Source: a virus (lineage: Duplodnaviria > Heunggongvirae > Uroviricota > Caudoviricetes). Taken from it: a DNA stretch of 64,000 bases. Location of the stretch: the IMG/VR virus record IMGVR_UViG_2721755662_000004. One strand, given 5' to 3'. This document shows positions 9,502-56,346 of the stretch, in pieces (the stretch's first letter is position 1; every line of letters begins with the position of its first letter). A program made the translations under genes and the position numbers. The notes below the pieces were generated by a model. That model was not told the DNA's origin and did not search any database. It worked only from the letters and a program-made list of their open reading frames with translations.

Positions 9502-9611
9502 ACCTGTAATCTATAACCACGGTTATCAAAAGTAAAACAACAATTGTTATTGCCCTGGTGTATAACTCATGTTATTTTTGGTTATGCTTTATTTGCTGTA
9601 GAGGTATGCTC
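9502..9611. promoter_or_regulatory. Putative OR operators with divergent PRM/PR
   Basis: Palindromes ATAACCACGGTTAT (9514-9527) and TATAACTCATGTTAT (9561-9575) between divergent cI and cro. Confidence 0.6.
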
Positions 9612-9836
9612 ATGAATTTAGTGATTCAGCGAGCCTTGAATATTGTTGGCAGTCAAAAACGACTTGCAGCTGATTGCGGCGTATCACAGCCCGCTGTTCA
9701 TAAATGGTTGCGAGGCGGAAAAGTTTCTCCTGAAAAAGTTTTCGCTATCGTTAATGCCACCAATGGTCAGGTTAAGGCTTACGAAATTCGCCCGGACTTA
9801 CCGCACCTGTTTCCTCATCCGAACCAGGCTGAATAA
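9612..9836 (+). CDS. cro: Cro-like HTH regulator
   Basis: 74 aa from the ATG at 9612 with GAGG SD; HTH (LAADCGVSQPAVHKWLRG); divergent from cI. Confidence 0.75.
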   Translation: MNLVIQRALNIVGSQKRLAADCGVSQPAVHKWLRGGKVSPEKVFAIVNATNGQVKAYEIRPDLPHLFPHPNQAE

Positions 9837-9952
9837 GTAACACCGCTCTTTAACATTGCTGGTCGTTCACCTCTAACAGGGTGAGCAAACATCAGTGGCA
9901 AACCCATTGGGGATTGCCGCTTAACCCCATATCAATATAGGAAAATTAACAA

Positions 9953-10249
9953 ATGTCACAAACAAGTTACAGCAAACTGTCACAGCGCGATATCGATCGC
10001 GCTGAAACGGATTTACTTATCAACCTGTCAGCTCTGACGCAAAGGGGACTGGCGAAGATGATTGGCTGCCATGAATCGAAGGTCAGTCGTACCGACTGGC
10101 GATACATCGCGGCGATTTTATGCGCGTTCCAGATGGCATCTGATATCAGTCCGATCAGCCGGGCTTTCCAGCATGCCATTAACGTTCATGCAAATAAAAA
10201 ACGTCCGGTTGGGGCCGGACGTTCTGAGCAAATCCTGATGAACATCTGA
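9953..10249 (+). CDS. cII: CII transcriptional activator
   Basis: 98 aa; C-terminus NKKRPVGAGRSEQILMNI matches lambda CII (NKKRPAATERSEQIQMEF). Confidence 0.85.
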   Translation: MSQTSYSKLSQRDIDRAETDLLINLSALTQRGLAKMIGCHESKVSRTDWRYIAAILCAFQMASDISPISRAFQHAINVHANKKRPVGAGRSEQILMNI

Positions 10250-10323
10250 TATTCAGGCAGGGCATGGAGCAATACACGGGAATAATTCTGCCACATCTGG
10301 AAGAATTTCGCCAGCAACAACAC

Positions 10324-10470
10324 CAACCGCAGCAGCCTGAAGCCGATTGGGTTAACCCGGAGATACCGGGACCGTCTGTGAAGATGTGCAGTCACACCAA
10401 TGTGCAGTCACACCAACCGCAGCAGCCTGAAGCCGATTGGGTTAACCCGGGAGATACCGGGACCGTCTGC
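10324..10470. repeat. Two direct copies of a 57-bp unit plus a 15-bp tandem repeat upstream of the replication gene
   Basis: CAACCGCAGCAGCCTGAAGCCGATTGGGTTAACCCGG... at 10324-10380 and 10414-10470, with a third, interrupted copy at 11163-11243 inside the O-like gene; GTGCAGTCACACCAA x2 at 10383-10416. Confidence 0.8.
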
Positions 10471-10502
10471 GGTATGGAGTAAATCTTGTATGCGAGGGGA
10501 CT

Positions 10503-45280: not shown

Positions 45281-45937
45281 ATGGGCGGAAAAAAAGGCGG
45301 TGGTGATACCAAAGTAAAACCAACAGCAGCGCAAATAGCACAGGAAGAAGTGGCCTGGAAAGGGTGGCAGGATTATCAAAAAATCCTCCGCCCGGCTGAA
45401 GATAACTTCATGGAAAAGGTCGATGACCTGAACAGTGAGCAGCAGTACGACAATATTGCTGGCACCACAAATCTGGGGTATCAGAAACAGTTTGGCGAAG
45501 CACGGAAGGAGCTGGCGGGTAATCTTGCTCAGTCCGGTGTTGACCCGTCCAGTGGTCGCTTTAACGCGGTAATGAATGCGAACCAGAGTGATCAGGTAAC
45601 CGGGCAGATTGACACAACCACACGGGGGCAGGTATCGCAGGCAGATAAGTATGTTGCCGGGCTACAGGATGTTGCTGCTCTCGGTTCTGGTCAAAAGGCG
45701 GATGCGTTACAGAGTTTTAACTCGCTGGCAGACAGCAGTCTGGCAAAAGCTAAATCGGACGCACAGGCTGCGTTTACGAAACAGCAGGGGCGAGCCTCTC
45801 TTGTTGGCGCTGGTTTGGGTGCGGTAGGTGCATATGCGATGTATAAGGCTGGCGGTAGCGGAGGAAGTGGCGGTGCTAAAACACCTGGCATCGGCGCTAA
45901 TGCCATTCAGCATCAGGCTCAGAACTGGAGACTGTGA
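45281..45937 (+). CDS. Hypothetical virion protein
   Basis: 218 aa; Gly-rich C-terminus. Confidence 0.5.
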   Translation: MGGKKGGGDTKVKPTAAQIAQEEVAWKGWQDYQKILRPAEDNFMEKVDDLNSEQQYDNIAGTTNLGYQKQFGEARKELAGNLAQSGVDPSSGRFNAVMNANQSDQVTGQIDTTTRGQVSQADKYVAGLQDVAALGSGQKADALQSFNSLADSSLAKAKSDAQAAFTKQQGRASLVGAGLGAVGAYAMYKAGGSGGSGGAKTPGIGANAIQHQAQNWRL

Positions 45938-46386
45938 TTATGGAGTACGGTAAATACGAAACACTTGCGAGATACGGTTATACCGGAGCTGCCCGTCCAC
46001 AGGGTGACTGGCAGACGTCAGCAGCGCTGACACGCCAACAATACGACGACTGGCGAACCAGATATTTGCCCCGCGTGGCAAGGCTGGCTGACCTTGGCGA
46101 GAACAACAGCCTGATGAATGCACAGCTTGCCCGGGTGGGCGGCCTTGCCACTTCCAGTCTCCGTACAGCGCAGATGGCGCAGGATAACCAGATGGCGAGA
46201 TACGGGGTAAGCCGCCCGGATAATCCCAACAGTAACACACTGGGTTTGCGTAATGCTCTGGCAATTGCTGGCGCGAAAAATGGTATCCGTGAAGCAGAGC
46301 AGGATCGCCAGATGAACATACTGACGGGGGCTTCTGCACCTGCAAGACAACAACTGAGTGTTGGCGGAAAACTGGTGTCAGCGTAA
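45934..46386 (+). CDS. Hypothetical virion protein
   Basis: 150-aa ORF. Confidence 0.45.
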   Translation: MIMEYGKYETLARYGYTGAARPQGDWQTSAALTRQQYDDWRTRYLPRVARLADLGENNSLMNAQLARVGGLATSSLRTAQMAQDNQMARYGVSRPDNPNSNTLGLRNALAIAGAKNGIREAEQDRQMNILTGASAPARQQLSVGGKLVSA

Positions 46387-46395
46387 GGGGGCAAT

Positions 46396-46647
46396 ATGGG
46401 ATACGGTTTACTGGATATTGCGAATCAGTCGCGGCGTGAGGCATTACAGGGAATAAGTGATGCCGACAGACGACGTGAAGAAATTGAGGCCGCGAACAAA
46501 CAGATGGCGGCGCAACAGAAAGCGCAGAACAAACAGAATATCGGCACGGGAATTGGTACGGGTGCAGCTATGGGCGCTGCTGTTGGTGGTCTCCCCGGTG
46601 CGGCTATTGGTGCTGTCATAGGTGGTATTGCTGGTTCTTTGTTTTAA
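46396..46647 (+). CDS. Hypothetical small protein with Gly-rich hydrophobic tail
   Basis: 83-aa ORF. Confidence 0.4.
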   Translation: MGYGLLDIANQSRREALQGISDADRRREEIEAANKQMAAQQKAQNKQNIGTGIGTGAAMGAAVGGLPGAAIGAVIGGIAGSLF

Positions 46648-46657
46648 GGAGTGGTGA

Positions 46658-47923
46658 ATGAGCGGATTTGCACAGGGTTTACTTGCCGGATTCAGCACGG
46701 TTGACCAGGCAATGACCCGTCGTAAGGAACTTGGTTTGCGAGAAGCACAGCTTGCTCAACAACAGAAAAATAACGAGCGCGATTTTGAATTTGCACAGTC
46801 GCAGTTTGAACATAATAAAGACGTTGATCAGCGGAACTTTGATTACAGAGCCAAAGTCGACGACCGTAATTATGCACTGCAGGAAAGGGAGTTTAACGCC
46901 AACCAGAATTACCGGAATGCGTCGCTGGGTATGGAGCAGCAGCGACTCCGGATGCAGAAATACAACCAGCGACGGCTTGAGTATAACGATATGCTGGCGC
47001 GCGATCAGCCTGTGATGGCGGCGCTTGGAAAGGCTGTGGATGCTGGCGATCGGGATGCAGCAATGCGTCTTTACGGCCAGTTGTCAGAGGGTAATCCGCT
47101 GAGGCTGATGGCGAATGATGGCTATGTAGCGAAAGCGGGTCAGGCCGTGAACAACCTGCAAAAAATCTTTGATGACAAGCCAGACAGGGCTATCGCTTCA
47201 CTTAATACGCCGGAGAATCTTGATGTCCTTTCCGGGGTGTTTGGCCCGGAACTGCAACAGCGTATTGGCATGCCCGATTCAACCGGGAAAAAGACGATAA
47301 AAGAGGCCAGGATTGGCAGTATAGTACCGGCACAGCAGGAAGGGTACATACTTATCGGCCTTGATCTCACATACAGTGATGGCTCTACAGCACATAAACC
47401 CGTTACGGAATACGGCAGTGCACATCCTGATGATCAAACCGTGCTGGCGGTGCCTGTTGATAAGGCTGTTGAGCTTGTCAGGGAACGCAGTAAATTCGCG
47501 GAAATTTCGAAAAATTTCGGCTATTTCACGCCGAAGCAGCAGGGACTTTCTGCGGATCAACTTCAGAAAGGAGCCAGCCAGGTAGCGATAAAGGTTGCAC
47601 AGGACGGCGGTGATGCGCAGGGAGCAGTGACGCAATATTATGCTTCGATGGGACTGCCGCAGTATCAGCAGCAAATTCAGCAGCAAAAAATTCAACAAGG
47701 GATTACCAGTTGGGCGGGTGATGATCCGGATAAGCAGGCATTTGCCAGAGAAGTGGCCTCCCGTCAGCCAGAAATGCTGGAGCCTCAGAATCAGAAATTG
47801 CTGGAACACGGGTATGCGAATTTTCTCCGTATTCAAAAGGCCAGGGAGGAACAGGCCAGGGATGATAGCGCGGCCTCTGCATCTGAGTTTATCCGTGGTC
47901 TGAAACAGAATTACGCGCAGTAA
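46658..47923 (+). CDS. Hypothetical virion protein
   Basis: 421-aa ORF. Confidence 0.5.
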   Translation: MSGFAQGLLAGFSTVDQAMTRRKELGLREAQLAQQQKNNERDFEFAQSQFEHNKDVDQRNFDYRAKVDDRNYALQEREFNANQNYRNASLGMEQQRLRMQKYNQRRLEYNDMLARDQPVMAALGKAVDAGDRDAAMRLYGQLSEGNPLRLMANDGYVAKAGQAVNNLQKIFDDKPDRAIASLNTPENLDVLSGVFGPELQQRIGMPDSTGKKTIKEARIGSIVPAQQEGYILIGLDLTYSDGSTAHKPVTEYGSAHPDDQTVLAVPVDKAVELVRERSKFAEISKNFGYFTPKQQGLSADQLQKGASQVAIKVAQDGGDAQGAVTQYYASMGLPQYQQQIQQQKIQQGITSWAGDDPDKQAFAREVASRQPEMLEPQNQKLLEHGYANFLRIQKAREEQARDDSAASASEFIRGLKQNYAQ

Positions 47924-47991
47924 TTCACCATTCCCGTTAATACTATTTCCTGATACCCGGTCATTGTGCCGGGTTTTTTTATGGAGTCTGT

Positions 47992-50900
47992 ATGGCTTAT
48001 TCCGATGAACAGCGCCCTGAAGCGCAATTTGGCAACCAGAGCCGCAACAGCCTGAACATTCAGCAGCCGGGAGAGACTGACAGCTATGATGTGTTTTTCT
48101 CCGATCCCAATCGCTGGAAGGACAACAGCACGTCGTTCAGCCTGGGCGATGTATTGCCAACTATGGGGAAAGGTGTCGCCCAGTCCGTCCGGGGGACAGG
48201 GGAAATGGCCCGTGGACTCGGTGATGCGATGATTCAGAGCCCGGTAAAAACAGGGGTACGTATTTTAAATGAGTTCAGCCGTATGGGGCTGCCGGGAGTC
48301 GCAACTGTTCAGGATATTTTTGTCGGTGGCAGCAAGGGGGCGGATGAGGTCATCGACACTCTGCCTGATGGAAAAAATGCGGTTACTGATACTGTCGGTA
48401 AAGGTCTGAAGGTCACAGGCAAGGCCGTCAGTGGCGGCGCTAAAGCCTCGGATGAATGGCTGACTGGCAAGATGTCGCCGGGGGCGCAGCGGGCGCTGAA
48501 TACACCGATGACTGAAGGATATGATGATTCAGCGGTCTGGGTAGCGAAAGGGGTTAACCTGATTGGTGCGCTTGTACCGGATATGGTTGCAGGCGGTGTG
48601 ACTAAAAAGCTGGGTGATGTCACTCTGCGAAAAGTGCTGACCGCCGGGCTGGAGAAAAAATACATCGCGGCAGGGATGCAGCCGGAAAGAGCCACAGCAC
48701 TGGCAGCCGAAGCTGTCGATAAAAAAATGCCGGATTTTTTCCAGGCAGGCCTGATCACCCATTCCACTGTCAGTGCGCAAGGGCGGAGTGCAATGGCAGC
48801 GGCAGATGCTGTTCTTAACGCGGATTATTCTGAGCTGGCGAAGTCACCGAAATTTCAGCAGACCTTTTTGTCAATTGATGCAGATCCGCAGCACGCGCAG
48901 CTTACTGACCGCCAGAAAATGGACCTGGCAAAAGAGCGTGTTGCCGATGAGGTGCGTGCGCAGCTGGCAACCGATCCTGAATTGCTGGCTGTGAATGCCA
49001 TGGCGGCAAAACTGGGCGATGCTCAGTTGCTTAATCTGGCGATGCGGGGCACGGCGAAGACCGTTAAAAGCGGCATTGTCAGAAATGCCACGGAACAGGG
49101 GACGATTAATGCGGCGCAGGGTGGCTATTCACGCTATCAGGAAAACACGGCATTGCGTGAGACCGCCGGAATGGATGTGTCACCGTGGGAGGGCGTGGCT
49201 GACGCAACGATCGAAGGTGCAGCCCTTGGTGCTGCAATGGGGGCACCATTCGGTGCGGCTGCCGGATATCGTGGAAAACGTCAGGCGGCAGATGAAGCAG
49301 CCATGCGTGAGGCTGAAAGCGTTCCTCAGGACGAATCGGCTCCGCAACCCGAACCGGTTGATCCGGTGGCACAGCATCGTGAATCTATGCAGGGGATGAA
49401 TCGCGAGCAGCTTCTGGAACAGTATGCTGATGCGGATATGGCACATGAGGGAGACACGTCTGCCGTTCATCGCCGGGAAGCCGCCAGCCAGCTGTTGAAT
49501 GAACTGGATGAACAGGCGAAGCGACAGGCGGTGATGGATGAGCTGAAGGCGAAGCCGCGCCCTGAACTGCTTGAGGAATACCGAAAACTCAGCCAGAAGG
49601 AAGGGCGTACTGATACTGAAGAGCAGCAGTTACAGGCAATACGTGATGTGCTTCGCCCTCAGCGGGAGGCCAGACCGGAGGCACAGCCACAGCCGGAAAA
49701 TGCGGATGATGGCGACGGGAGTATTTACCCGACGGTGCGGTTCCGCGATCCGGATGAAGTTCGTATTGAAATTAACGAGAGTGGTGCGTCCAGACCAGCA
49801 GAACGCATTGAAAAGGTGCGTCCGGACAACCGTTATTTCACGGATGAAAAAAGTGCTCTGGGGAGCGACGTTTTCCGCAATGCCAGCGCCACCGGCCTGA
49901 AACCGTCCGTAGTGAAGAAAGGCGAGAATCAGTATGCCGTTGAAATGGATAATCCTGCGTTCTCTGAAGATGTGGCAACGGAGACCATTAACACTCTGGC
50001 TGACGGAGAGCGTATTACTGATGCTGATCCGATGGAACAGCCCGCGTTCATGCGTGACCCGCGATTCCGTGGTTTTACGGGGGATGATACAGAAGTGCAG
50101 GCCCGTCTTGCTCGTGGCAACGCGCCGACGGCGGAAGAACTGGTGCGTTCCCAGATGGCTGAAGGTGATGCCGGTCCGACAGCACAGGAGTTAACTGAGC
50201 GTCCACGCCTTCCCGCTCCCGGCGATATTCATCCCGGACAGGGATATCCGTTACCAGGAGAAGTAGCGCGTACGCCGGATGAAAATCAGGCCGGACGTGG
50301 TGGTCGTTTTACCACAACCGGTGAGGTGAAGGGCCAGAGTTTCCAGAAAGGACGTGCGCAGGCACCGGAAAATGCCGCTGGTCGCCAGGGGGAAATACTG
50401 GAGGGCGAAACAGTTCGTCGTGGTCTGCCGTCACCGGATGAGCAGAACGCCACAGCACCAGTGCGTGAAGGTCTTCCTGCACCTGAAAGTCAGCGTGGGG
50501 TTGATATGCCACAGCCTGAATCACTCCCTCGTATGGTTCGTGACTCCCTTCCGGAACTGGCACAGCAGGCAGAAGCACGCAGACAGACCGGGGATAATCG
50601 CCAGACCATAACCGATGTTCCGGATACTGAGGTGCCGGTGCCGGTAGATAAACCGAGCACTCACCAGCAGGCGCGTGGTGCGAAAATTGAAGACTTTGGC
50701 GAGGAGATTAAGGGCGCGGCAAAACACCGTTATGCGCAGCTTGCTGAAGCTATGGGTAAAACGCTGGAGGATGGGGAGTACGCGACACAACCACTGAGCA
50801 AACTGTTTCCAAAGCCGGATTATGCCCGTCTGGAAAAAGAAGGTGTGGATAGTGACACGCTGGCAATGATGGCGTTGTATCGCAGTGAAATTCCCACCAG

Positions 50901-56346: not shown

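Follow-up and report, generated by a model that had tools for sequence, protein, structure and literature searches.

Phage proteins in which several unrelated domains are joined in one polypeptide have been described as polyvalent proteins, and that description (Iyer 2017, PMC5512222) lists LPD5, LPD1, LPD38 and MuF_C/PBECR domains and two classes of zincin-like peptidase among their components, with the genes lying in a late-gene context. For one such protein there is evidence from the virion itself, as a combined electron cryomicroscopy (cryo-EM) and proteomics study of phage phi24B found the 2811-residue gp47 to be abundant in purified virions and invisible in the reconstruction, and its authors put forward gp47 as an ejection protein housed inside the T=9 capsid (bioRxiv 10.64898/2026.04.10.717836). 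Here we analyse a giant gene in IMG/VR virus record IMGVR_UViG_2721755662_000004 (Caudoviricetes), of which a stretch of 64,000 nucleotides (the window) was available. Its product of 2784 residues carries all of the domains and both zincin classes named above in a single polypeptide, and the gene lies among late and virion genes. We consider it likely that a podophage of the 933W/phi24B type (Traversvirus-like) packages this large polyvalent protein in its capsid for ejection, and that its two zincins process the polyprotein itself after ejection.

The gene is a single open reading frame (ORF) on the plus strand, running from an ATG at 47992 to a stop codon ending at 56346 exactly as first annotated, with a GGAG located 7 nt 5' of the start codon. 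The predicted protein has a mass of 307 kDa, an isoelectric point (pI) of 7.5 and not one cysteine. It closes the plus-strand late block, following the nozzle, the needle and other virion genes, and the genes past it are on the minus strand. The window holds no gene of tape-measure size, as had been noted at the outset, and none is expected because the phage is a short-tailed podovirus of the 933W/phi24B type. A megablast search with the gene returned 186 phage records, each with at least 80% coverage and 90-96% nucleotide identity, nearly all of them Shiga toxin (Stx)-converting or related E. coli and Shigella podophages of the 933W, VT2-Sakai, Stx2-86, P13374 and phi24B type (genus Traversvirus, subfamily Sepvirinae). 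Identity to phi24B gp47 (vb_24B_48, ADN68472) is 90% over the full length, the Stx2-86 ortholog gp35 is named 'LPD5 domain-containing protein' in RefSeq, and PHROG 616, labelled 'unknown function', spans the protein end to end. In 933W, VT2-Sakai (Sp5), Stx2-86, P13374 and phi24B the ortholog likewise closes the virion module and has identical Pfam domains; the differences are allelic only, with 2784 residues here against 2807-2811 there, and fall mainly in the linker and LPD5 regions.

The proposal in the initial annotation of an internal or ejection protein agrees well with the detection of the phi24B ortholog by mass spectrometry in virions and its absence from the cryo-EM model. Only the capsid protein has more spectra than gp47 (10,962) in the phi24B dataset, and the gp47 spectra by gel slice (2188, 1686, 1187, 1260, 663 and so on) are concentrated in the four slices above the portal; the peak of the 80-kDa portal is in slice 5 and that of the capsid protein is in slice 11 (bioRxiv 10.64898/2026.04.10.717836). 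These counts suggest that gp47 is mostly well above 80 kDa in the virion and hence largely unprocessed there. The unfractionated sample gave 746 gp47 spectra against 101 for the portal (same preprint), which by our own arithmetic amounts to about twice the portal per residue and, very roughly, to 20 copies per virion. Such abundance might also be expected of a mainly structural protein, a core component or a determinant of packaging density or capsid size that is retained in the head, with the HExxH sites serving only morphogenetic maturation. The T=9 capsid of phi24B, which would leave spare internal volume around a genome of ~58 kb, could accommodate such a protein, and processing ahead of packaging is described for P1 DdrB as for other head proteins (Iyer 2017, PMC5512222). 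We nevertheless regard a purely structural role as improbable, given that unassigned density in the lumen of the phi24B tail adaptor disappears on ejection (preprint), that the family-wide loss of cysteine is a signature reported for proteins exiting the virion via the periplasm, and that a variable enzymatic cargo (RNase-like, ART, methylase, RelA/SpoT and transglycosylase domains) is sensible only if it is delivered.

The absence of cysteine has a probability of about 2e-10 in a protein of this length at an expectation of 0.8%. It is shared by 60 of 65 giants, the maximum being 0.07%, and it holds for the giant proteins of Vibrio phage D75 (3066 residues) and Ralstonia phage Cimandef (4545 residues) and for the virion RNA polymerase (vRNAP) of N4 (3500 residues). 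Nor is it confined to the giant, as the last five late genes (45281-56346) encode 3656 residues free of cysteine, 872 of them contributed by the four upstream genes alone, and a set of ten window proteins, chiefly from virion and late genes, has 36 cysteines in 4958 residues (0.73%). Cysteine suppression has been documented as conserved in the ejection operon of Schitoviridae, where it was tied to passage through the disulfide-forming periplasm (Lokareddy 2024, PMC11445570). The cysteine-free block therefore gives independent support for ejection and marks the four upstream genes as candidate partners, whose products, judged by composition and position, are probably co-ejected. The phi24B orthologs of three of them, the 218-, 150- and 421-residue proteins (gp51, gp50 and gp48), were clearly detected in virions (bioRxiv 10.64898/2026.04.10.717836). 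In the fourth, of 83 residues, the C-terminal part matches a YMGG-type glycine zipper in Pfam slightly below the cut-off (E 4.5e-6), and the protein may be a small membrane-inserting virion component. RefSeq labels its relatives 'bacteriocin'; in the phi24B study a 'bacteriocin homolog' was set aside as contamination, and an unlabelled 86-residue product at that position in their data has 13 spectra (bioRxiv 10.64898/2026.04.10.717836).

Several known ejection systems resemble this arrangement. The vRNAPs of N4 (gp50) and DEV (gp71) are giants of 3.4-3.5 thousand residues, free of cysteine, packaged in the capsid, ejected and equipped with a zincin-like motif, and in the three-gene ejection operon of Schitoviridae a mid-sized and a small cysteine-free protein precede the giant, as here; the RNA polymerase of the N4 and DEV giants is absent from the present protein. 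N4 vRNAP (9524-20026, minus strand) contains a single HELVH at residue 2228, and the strands ahead of it align weakly with our profile of the second peptidase (hhalign E 4e-4, probability 34%). With this marginal match to the peptidase core and nothing for the C-terminal module, we did not accept homology and keep N4 as an analogue. In T7 (gp14, gp15, gp16) and P22 (gp7, gp16, gp20) head-internal proteins encoded as a small, medium and large series beside tail genes are expelled and form a trans-envelope conduit (PMC8402733).

Both of the HExxH strings to which the initial annotation drew attention are present and conserved, and structure prediction gives a zincin arrangement at each of them, confidently at the first and with moderate confidence at the second; the second proved to belong to a different motif class from the one named. 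The first, LAHEWFHSLDNY at residues 1272-1283, contains HEWFH starting at residue 1274. The pattern HEW[FWLM]H followed by xxD is kept in 93 of 93 homologs that align across the site, at identities down to ~35%, and in an alignment of 63 sequences conservation reaches 90% or more at H1253, E1255, H1274, E1275, W1276, H1278, D1281, E1365, R1369 and E1372. In an AlphaFold model of residues 1040-1870, which is confident across residues 1040-1440, H1253 ends the second of three strands (model residues 213-216), the HExxH lies on the next helix (model residues 233-248) with a predicted local distance difference test (pLDDT) score of ~90 or higher, and EMAARAFE, with E1365 and E1372 as candidates for the third metal ligand, is placed on a later helix (model residues 324-342) that corresponds to the 'LPD1' of Pfam. 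With its strand-2 histidine and an aspartate three residues past the motif, this is, on the model, a zincin-like metallopeptidase of the HExxH + Asp class described for phage polyvalent proteins (PMC5512222). The NCBIfam model CLCA_X overlaps residues 1172-1427 with 154 bits against a cut-off of 260, and membership of that family was not accepted.

At the second site, RHEIIHHAMEH at residues 1540-1550, a local profile of residues 1464-1654 gathered 48 aligned domains from distant giant proteins. In these H1541 is conserved in 92%, E1542, H1546 and E1597 in 100% and E1604 in 92%, and H1545, the histidine on which a reading as HExxH depends, is not conserved, most homologs having HEV-L-A/G/V-H. 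Because H1546 is kept and H1545 is not, the true motif on this alignment is HExxxH, which in Iyer 2017 (PMC5512222) forms a separate class of polyvalent-protein peptidases. The topology of the model (a helix, three strands, the motif helix and a later glutamate helix) fits this class with pLDDT of 65-90. As the first site is kept in all 93 homologs and the three motif residues of the second in 92, 100 and 100% of the 48 domains, neither motif is a chance occurrence. Neither falls within a Pfam model. Zinc binding and peptidase activity are predicted from the zincin arrangement at both sites.

The folds closest to the two zincin domains include PPEP-3, thermolysin and neprilysin, and also toxins that cleave host proteins, namely anthrax lethal factor, the light chains of botulinum toxin and Pro-Pro endopeptidases. 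The zincins might accordingly be pictured as effectors on host targets that either breach the wall, by cutting peptidoglycan cross-links or Lpp, or destroy host or defence proteins once delivered. Peptidoglycan endopeptidases usually have LAS, M23, M15 or NlpC/P60 folds, not MtfA-like or lethal-factor-like zincin folds, which speaks against the wall-cleavage form of this idea. Effector action on host proteins is one of the possible roles given in Iyer 2017 (PMC5512222), degradation of peptidoglycan is proposed in the phi24B preprint (bioRxiv 10.64898/2026.04.10.717836), and the protein is without a lysozyme or transglycosylase domain of its own while relatives have one, so that another envelope-breaching activity could be needed. 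The preprint, however, pins the peptidase activity on MuF_C, which it calls a 'metallopeptidase domain' degrading peptidoglycan (bioRxiv 10.64898/2026.04.10.717836). This is a mislabel: the zincin cores are those at residues 1174-1439 and 1464-1654 of the ortholog in the window, and MuF_C, following PMC5512222, is an RNase-like PBECR domain with putative RNase activity, not a peptidase. Nor did PADLOC or Pfam show any link to anti-defence, PADLOC returning 0 families for the protein and no methylase or helicase being found, which leaves the anti-defence part of the initial annotation unsupported. As the second peptidase is bound to the constant parts of these proteins (below), as would be expected more of a housekeeping than of a host-specific function, we think action of the zincins on host targets unlikely. 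Self-processing remains the role that we prefer.

The designation as a polyvalent protein is borne out by the Pfam domains above gathering score, namely LPD5 (4.5e-43), LPD1 at residues 1351-1430 (7.6e-23), MuF_C (1.1e-16) and LPD38 (2.6e-47). LPD5 and its lead-in form the first part of a mobile LPD5-peptidase-LPD1 unit, are modelled with pLDDT mostly above 80 and may, as suggested in Iyer 2017 (PMC5512222), be enzymatic. In the MuF_C region K1735, H1742, H1791, S1806, Y1808 and G1809 are conserved, H1742 and S1806 in 100% of 18 domains, with pLDDT below 50. Pfam found no lysozyme, transglycosylase, methylase, helicase or ART domain in the protein, and a Pfam scan of its unassigned pieces gave no significant match; Peptidase_M76 at E 0.18 and a weak glycine-zipper hit at E 0.096 were taken as noise or hints only. 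The N-terminal domain contains the most hydrophobic segment, with W183 conserved in 95%, and a glycine zipper G413xxxG417xxxG421 conserved in 100, 100 and 95%. The linker that follows has a pI of 4.7 and no tryptophan and is, on composition, probably disordered. The C-terminal module is modelled as mostly helical (pLDDT 85, predicted template modelling score 0.81). Searches of PDB chain sequences with the protein and two profiles found no solved relative, and Pfam covers only ~190 residues of this module and neither of the peptidase cores. C-terminal hydrophobic segments, also pointed out initially, do exist, with Kyte-Doolittle 19-residue maxima of 1.35 (residues 2440-2458) and 1.04 (residues 2506-2524), but they are weak and the highest window, 1.38 at residues 181-199, is N-terminal. 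A reading of these segments as transmembrane helices was ruled out, all scores being below the threshold of 1.6.

With a view to the distribution of these parts, an exhaustive search with residues 1-470 found 100 proteins, mostly giants of 1.3-4.7 thousand residues matching at their N terminus, and the 64 relatives of at least 1300 residues were scanned with a local profile for every segment of our protein. The N-terminal domain was found in 60 of the 64, at the N terminus, the HExxxH peptidase in 58 and the C-terminal module in 31; LPD5 with the first peptidase was present in 19 and MuF_C in 17. In all of its carriers the C-terminal module ends within 20 residues of the end of the protein, and the HExxxH peptidase precedes it in all 27 cases. 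Its fold recurs in the BFVD database with template modelling scores of 0.6-0.89 over ~900-1000 columns at identities down to 12-16%, where it makes up the last segments of many phage polyvalent proteins, in fusion with LT_GEWL, RelA/SpoT or type I methylase domains. On these comparisons the constant parts would be the glycine-zipper N-terminal domain, the HExxxH peptidase and the ~900-residue C-terminal module, with the middle as variable cargo, and neither this fixed frame nor the depletion of cysteine is spelled out in the available part of Iyer 2017 (PMC5512222). The position of the gene is shared as well, the giant being the last virion gene, preceded by a protein of 420-510 residues, in Stx, Vibrio D75 and Ralstonia Cimandef phages, and the preceding proteins of the Stx phages (421 residues) and of Vibrio D75 are homologous (E 3e-14).

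The C-terminal module also ends the 'DarB-like' proteins of 4.5 thousand residues in Bcep22-type podophages of Ralstonia and Burkholderia. In Bcep22 gp75, JC1 gp69 and Cimandef gp14 it is homologous to ours with ~28% identity over 85%, and, as here, the genes of these giants close the virion module, the proteins have no cysteine, and portal and capsid genes of related type accompany them. Mass spectrometry places JC1 gp69 in the virion fraction, and the portal, capsid and head-closure proteins of that phage are homologous to those of 933W. The cargo of the Bcep22-type proteins is annotated as helicase, methylase and lytic transglycosylase, none of which occurs in the giant studied here, and our N-terminal, HExxxH-peptidase and other local profiles had no match in the Cimandef giant. 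These homologies bear on whether the protein is a DarB-like anti-restriction factor, as its Ralstonia and Burkholderia homologs are annotated: PHROG 10089 ('DarB-like antirestriction') matches residues 2345-2672, and tblastn matches fall within genes annotated DarB-like. The PHROG match, however, is confined to the shared C-terminal LPD38 region, and we rejected the label as neither Pfam, NCBIfam nor PADLOC finds the domains by which DarB is defined, a methyltransferase and a helicase. Other regions of the large Bcep22-type proteins are the source of the annotation, and an anti-restriction function of this kind is in our view extremely improbable.

In the mechanism that we favour, that of a self-processing ejection protein, the giant would be made late and packaged in the head largely as one very large polypeptide, to be expelled through the portal and nozzle at infection. 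The N-terminal domain, the HExxxH peptidase and the C-terminal module would serve packaging and/or ejection and the crossing of the envelope, probably together with the four cysteine-free proteins encoded directly upstream, and the interchangeable middle, here LPD5, the HExxH + Asp peptidase and LPD1 plus the RNase-like PBECR domain, would be the delivered cargo. The two zincins would most likely cleave the polyprotein, or its partners, and so free the modules once ejected; processing of the polyprotein after ejection has been argued for such peptidases (PMC5512222), and the role is favoured for the HExxxH peptidase because it travels with the constant parts and not with the cargo. Several points weigh against this account. 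The capsid-internal location, ejection and cleavage are inferred, as are conduit formation and RNase activity. The gel distribution of gp47 suggests a mostly unprocessed protein in the virion, and self-processing would therefore occur after ejection or not at all. The hydrophobic segments lie under the transmembrane threshold, the role given to the C-terminal module follows only from its position and conservation, in a fold without a solved relative, and the model is unreliable in the MuF_C part. The C-terminal profile matched fewer than half of the relatives scanned, which divergence or truncated predictions may explain, or the module is not universal. A wider proposal is more doubtful, although we offer it tentatively: the 933W-, Bcep22-/GP4- and Vibrio D75-type giants might form one delivery platform in which a fixed cysteine-free chassis carries arbitrary enzymatic cargo, the HExxxH peptidase frees the cargo after ejection, and the chassis and four small partners build a trans-envelope conduit for DNA. 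Such a platform would be an ejectosome of a new kind among podophages, with no relation to the T7, P22 and N4 ones.

Table 1 Coordinates in the window of the giant gene, the parts of its product and the other features discussed
Feature	Position	Strand	Basis
Complete ORF, ortholog of phi24B gp47 (vb_24B_48) and Stx2-86 gp35	47992..56346	+	PHROG 616 end to end
N-terminal domain, residues 1-429	47992..49278	+	Local profile, giant relatives
Most hydrophobic segment, residues 181-199	48532..48588	+	Kyte-Doolittle
Glycine zipper G413xxxG417xxxG421	49207..49266	+	Conservation
Acidic Pro/Glu/Gln/Ala/Arg-rich linker, residues 430-895	49279..50676	+	Composition; no family match
'IEDFGE..' lead-in and LPD5 (residues 1047-1190)	50680..51561	+	Pfam, conservation, model
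Zincin-like metallopeptidase 1 with LPD1 as its C-terminal part, residues 1174-1439	51511..52308	+	Pfam, conservation, model
HEWFH of site 1	51811..51825	+	Conservation, model
EMAARAFE (E1365/E1372)	52084..52107	+	Conservation, model
Zincin-like metallopeptidase 2, HExxxH class, residues 1464-1654	52381..52953	+	Local profile, model; no Pfam model
HEIIHH of site 2, from residue 1541	52612..52629	+	Conservation, model
E1597/E1604 of site 2	52780..52803	+	Conservation, model
MuF_C / PBECR RNase-like domain, residues 1679-1838 (Pfam 1740-1832)	53026..53505	+	Pfam
Mostly helical C-terminal module of ~910 residues, residues 1872-2781	53605..56334	+	Profile, model
LPD38 inside the C-terminal module, residues 2467-2672	55390..56007	+	Pfam
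Four cysteine-free genes (218, 150, 83 and 421 residues)	45281..47923	+	Composition
83-residue product	46396..46647	+	
Terminator-like hairpin	47955..47981	+	Pattern match
NanS-like SASA esterase gene	21868..23778		
Q antiterminator gene	20569..21102		
Three anti-repressor-type genes	16768..19832		

Much of this agrees with what had been published, so that the interpretation given in the initial annotation was largely right and not new, having appeared for the family (PMC5512222) and for the ortholog (bioRxiv 10.64898/2026.04.10.717836); earlier publications cover the gene and its family, the two classes of peptidase, the presence of the ortholog in virions and the loss of cysteine as a signature. 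Our analysis adds a fuller and corrected domain map, the reassignment of the second site to HExxxH, the counts for chassis and cargo and the five-gene cysteine-free block, which is annotation and not discovery. In the phages that disseminate Shiga toxin genes ~14% of the genome is occupied by the giant gene, and an injected, self-processing multi-enzyme package, if true, would explain how the envelope of E. coli is crossed after binding to BamA as well as effects on the cell in the first minutes. The practical gain is modest and consists of two zincin cores outside Pfam, a MuF_C domain that is not a peptidase, catalytic residues to mutate and a probable co-ejected set.

Between the 421-residue gene and the giant gene lies a terminator-like GC hairpin of 7 pairs, 5 of them GC, followed by seven T residues and stopping 10 nt short of the giant ATG. 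On this pattern match only, expression of the giant could be lowered relative to the upstream virion genes, or the hairpin could be read through under Q antitermination.

The phage of the window appears to be without the stx operon, a difference from the phages of the phi24B-type orthologs. The gap from the Q antiterminator gene to the NanS-like SASA esterase gene is only ~0.77 kb, and in Stx1c and Stx2a phages it is ~1.75 kb longer and contains stxA and stxB; from this short interval the phage therefore appears to be an stx-negative, or stx-deleted, member of the group. ARAGORN found no tRNA gene in the whole window. Upstream of rusA and Q lies a set of three consecutive anti-repressor-type genes, two with ORF6N + P22_AR_C and one of the KilAC/ANT type, with NinB situated between the two ORF6N genes.

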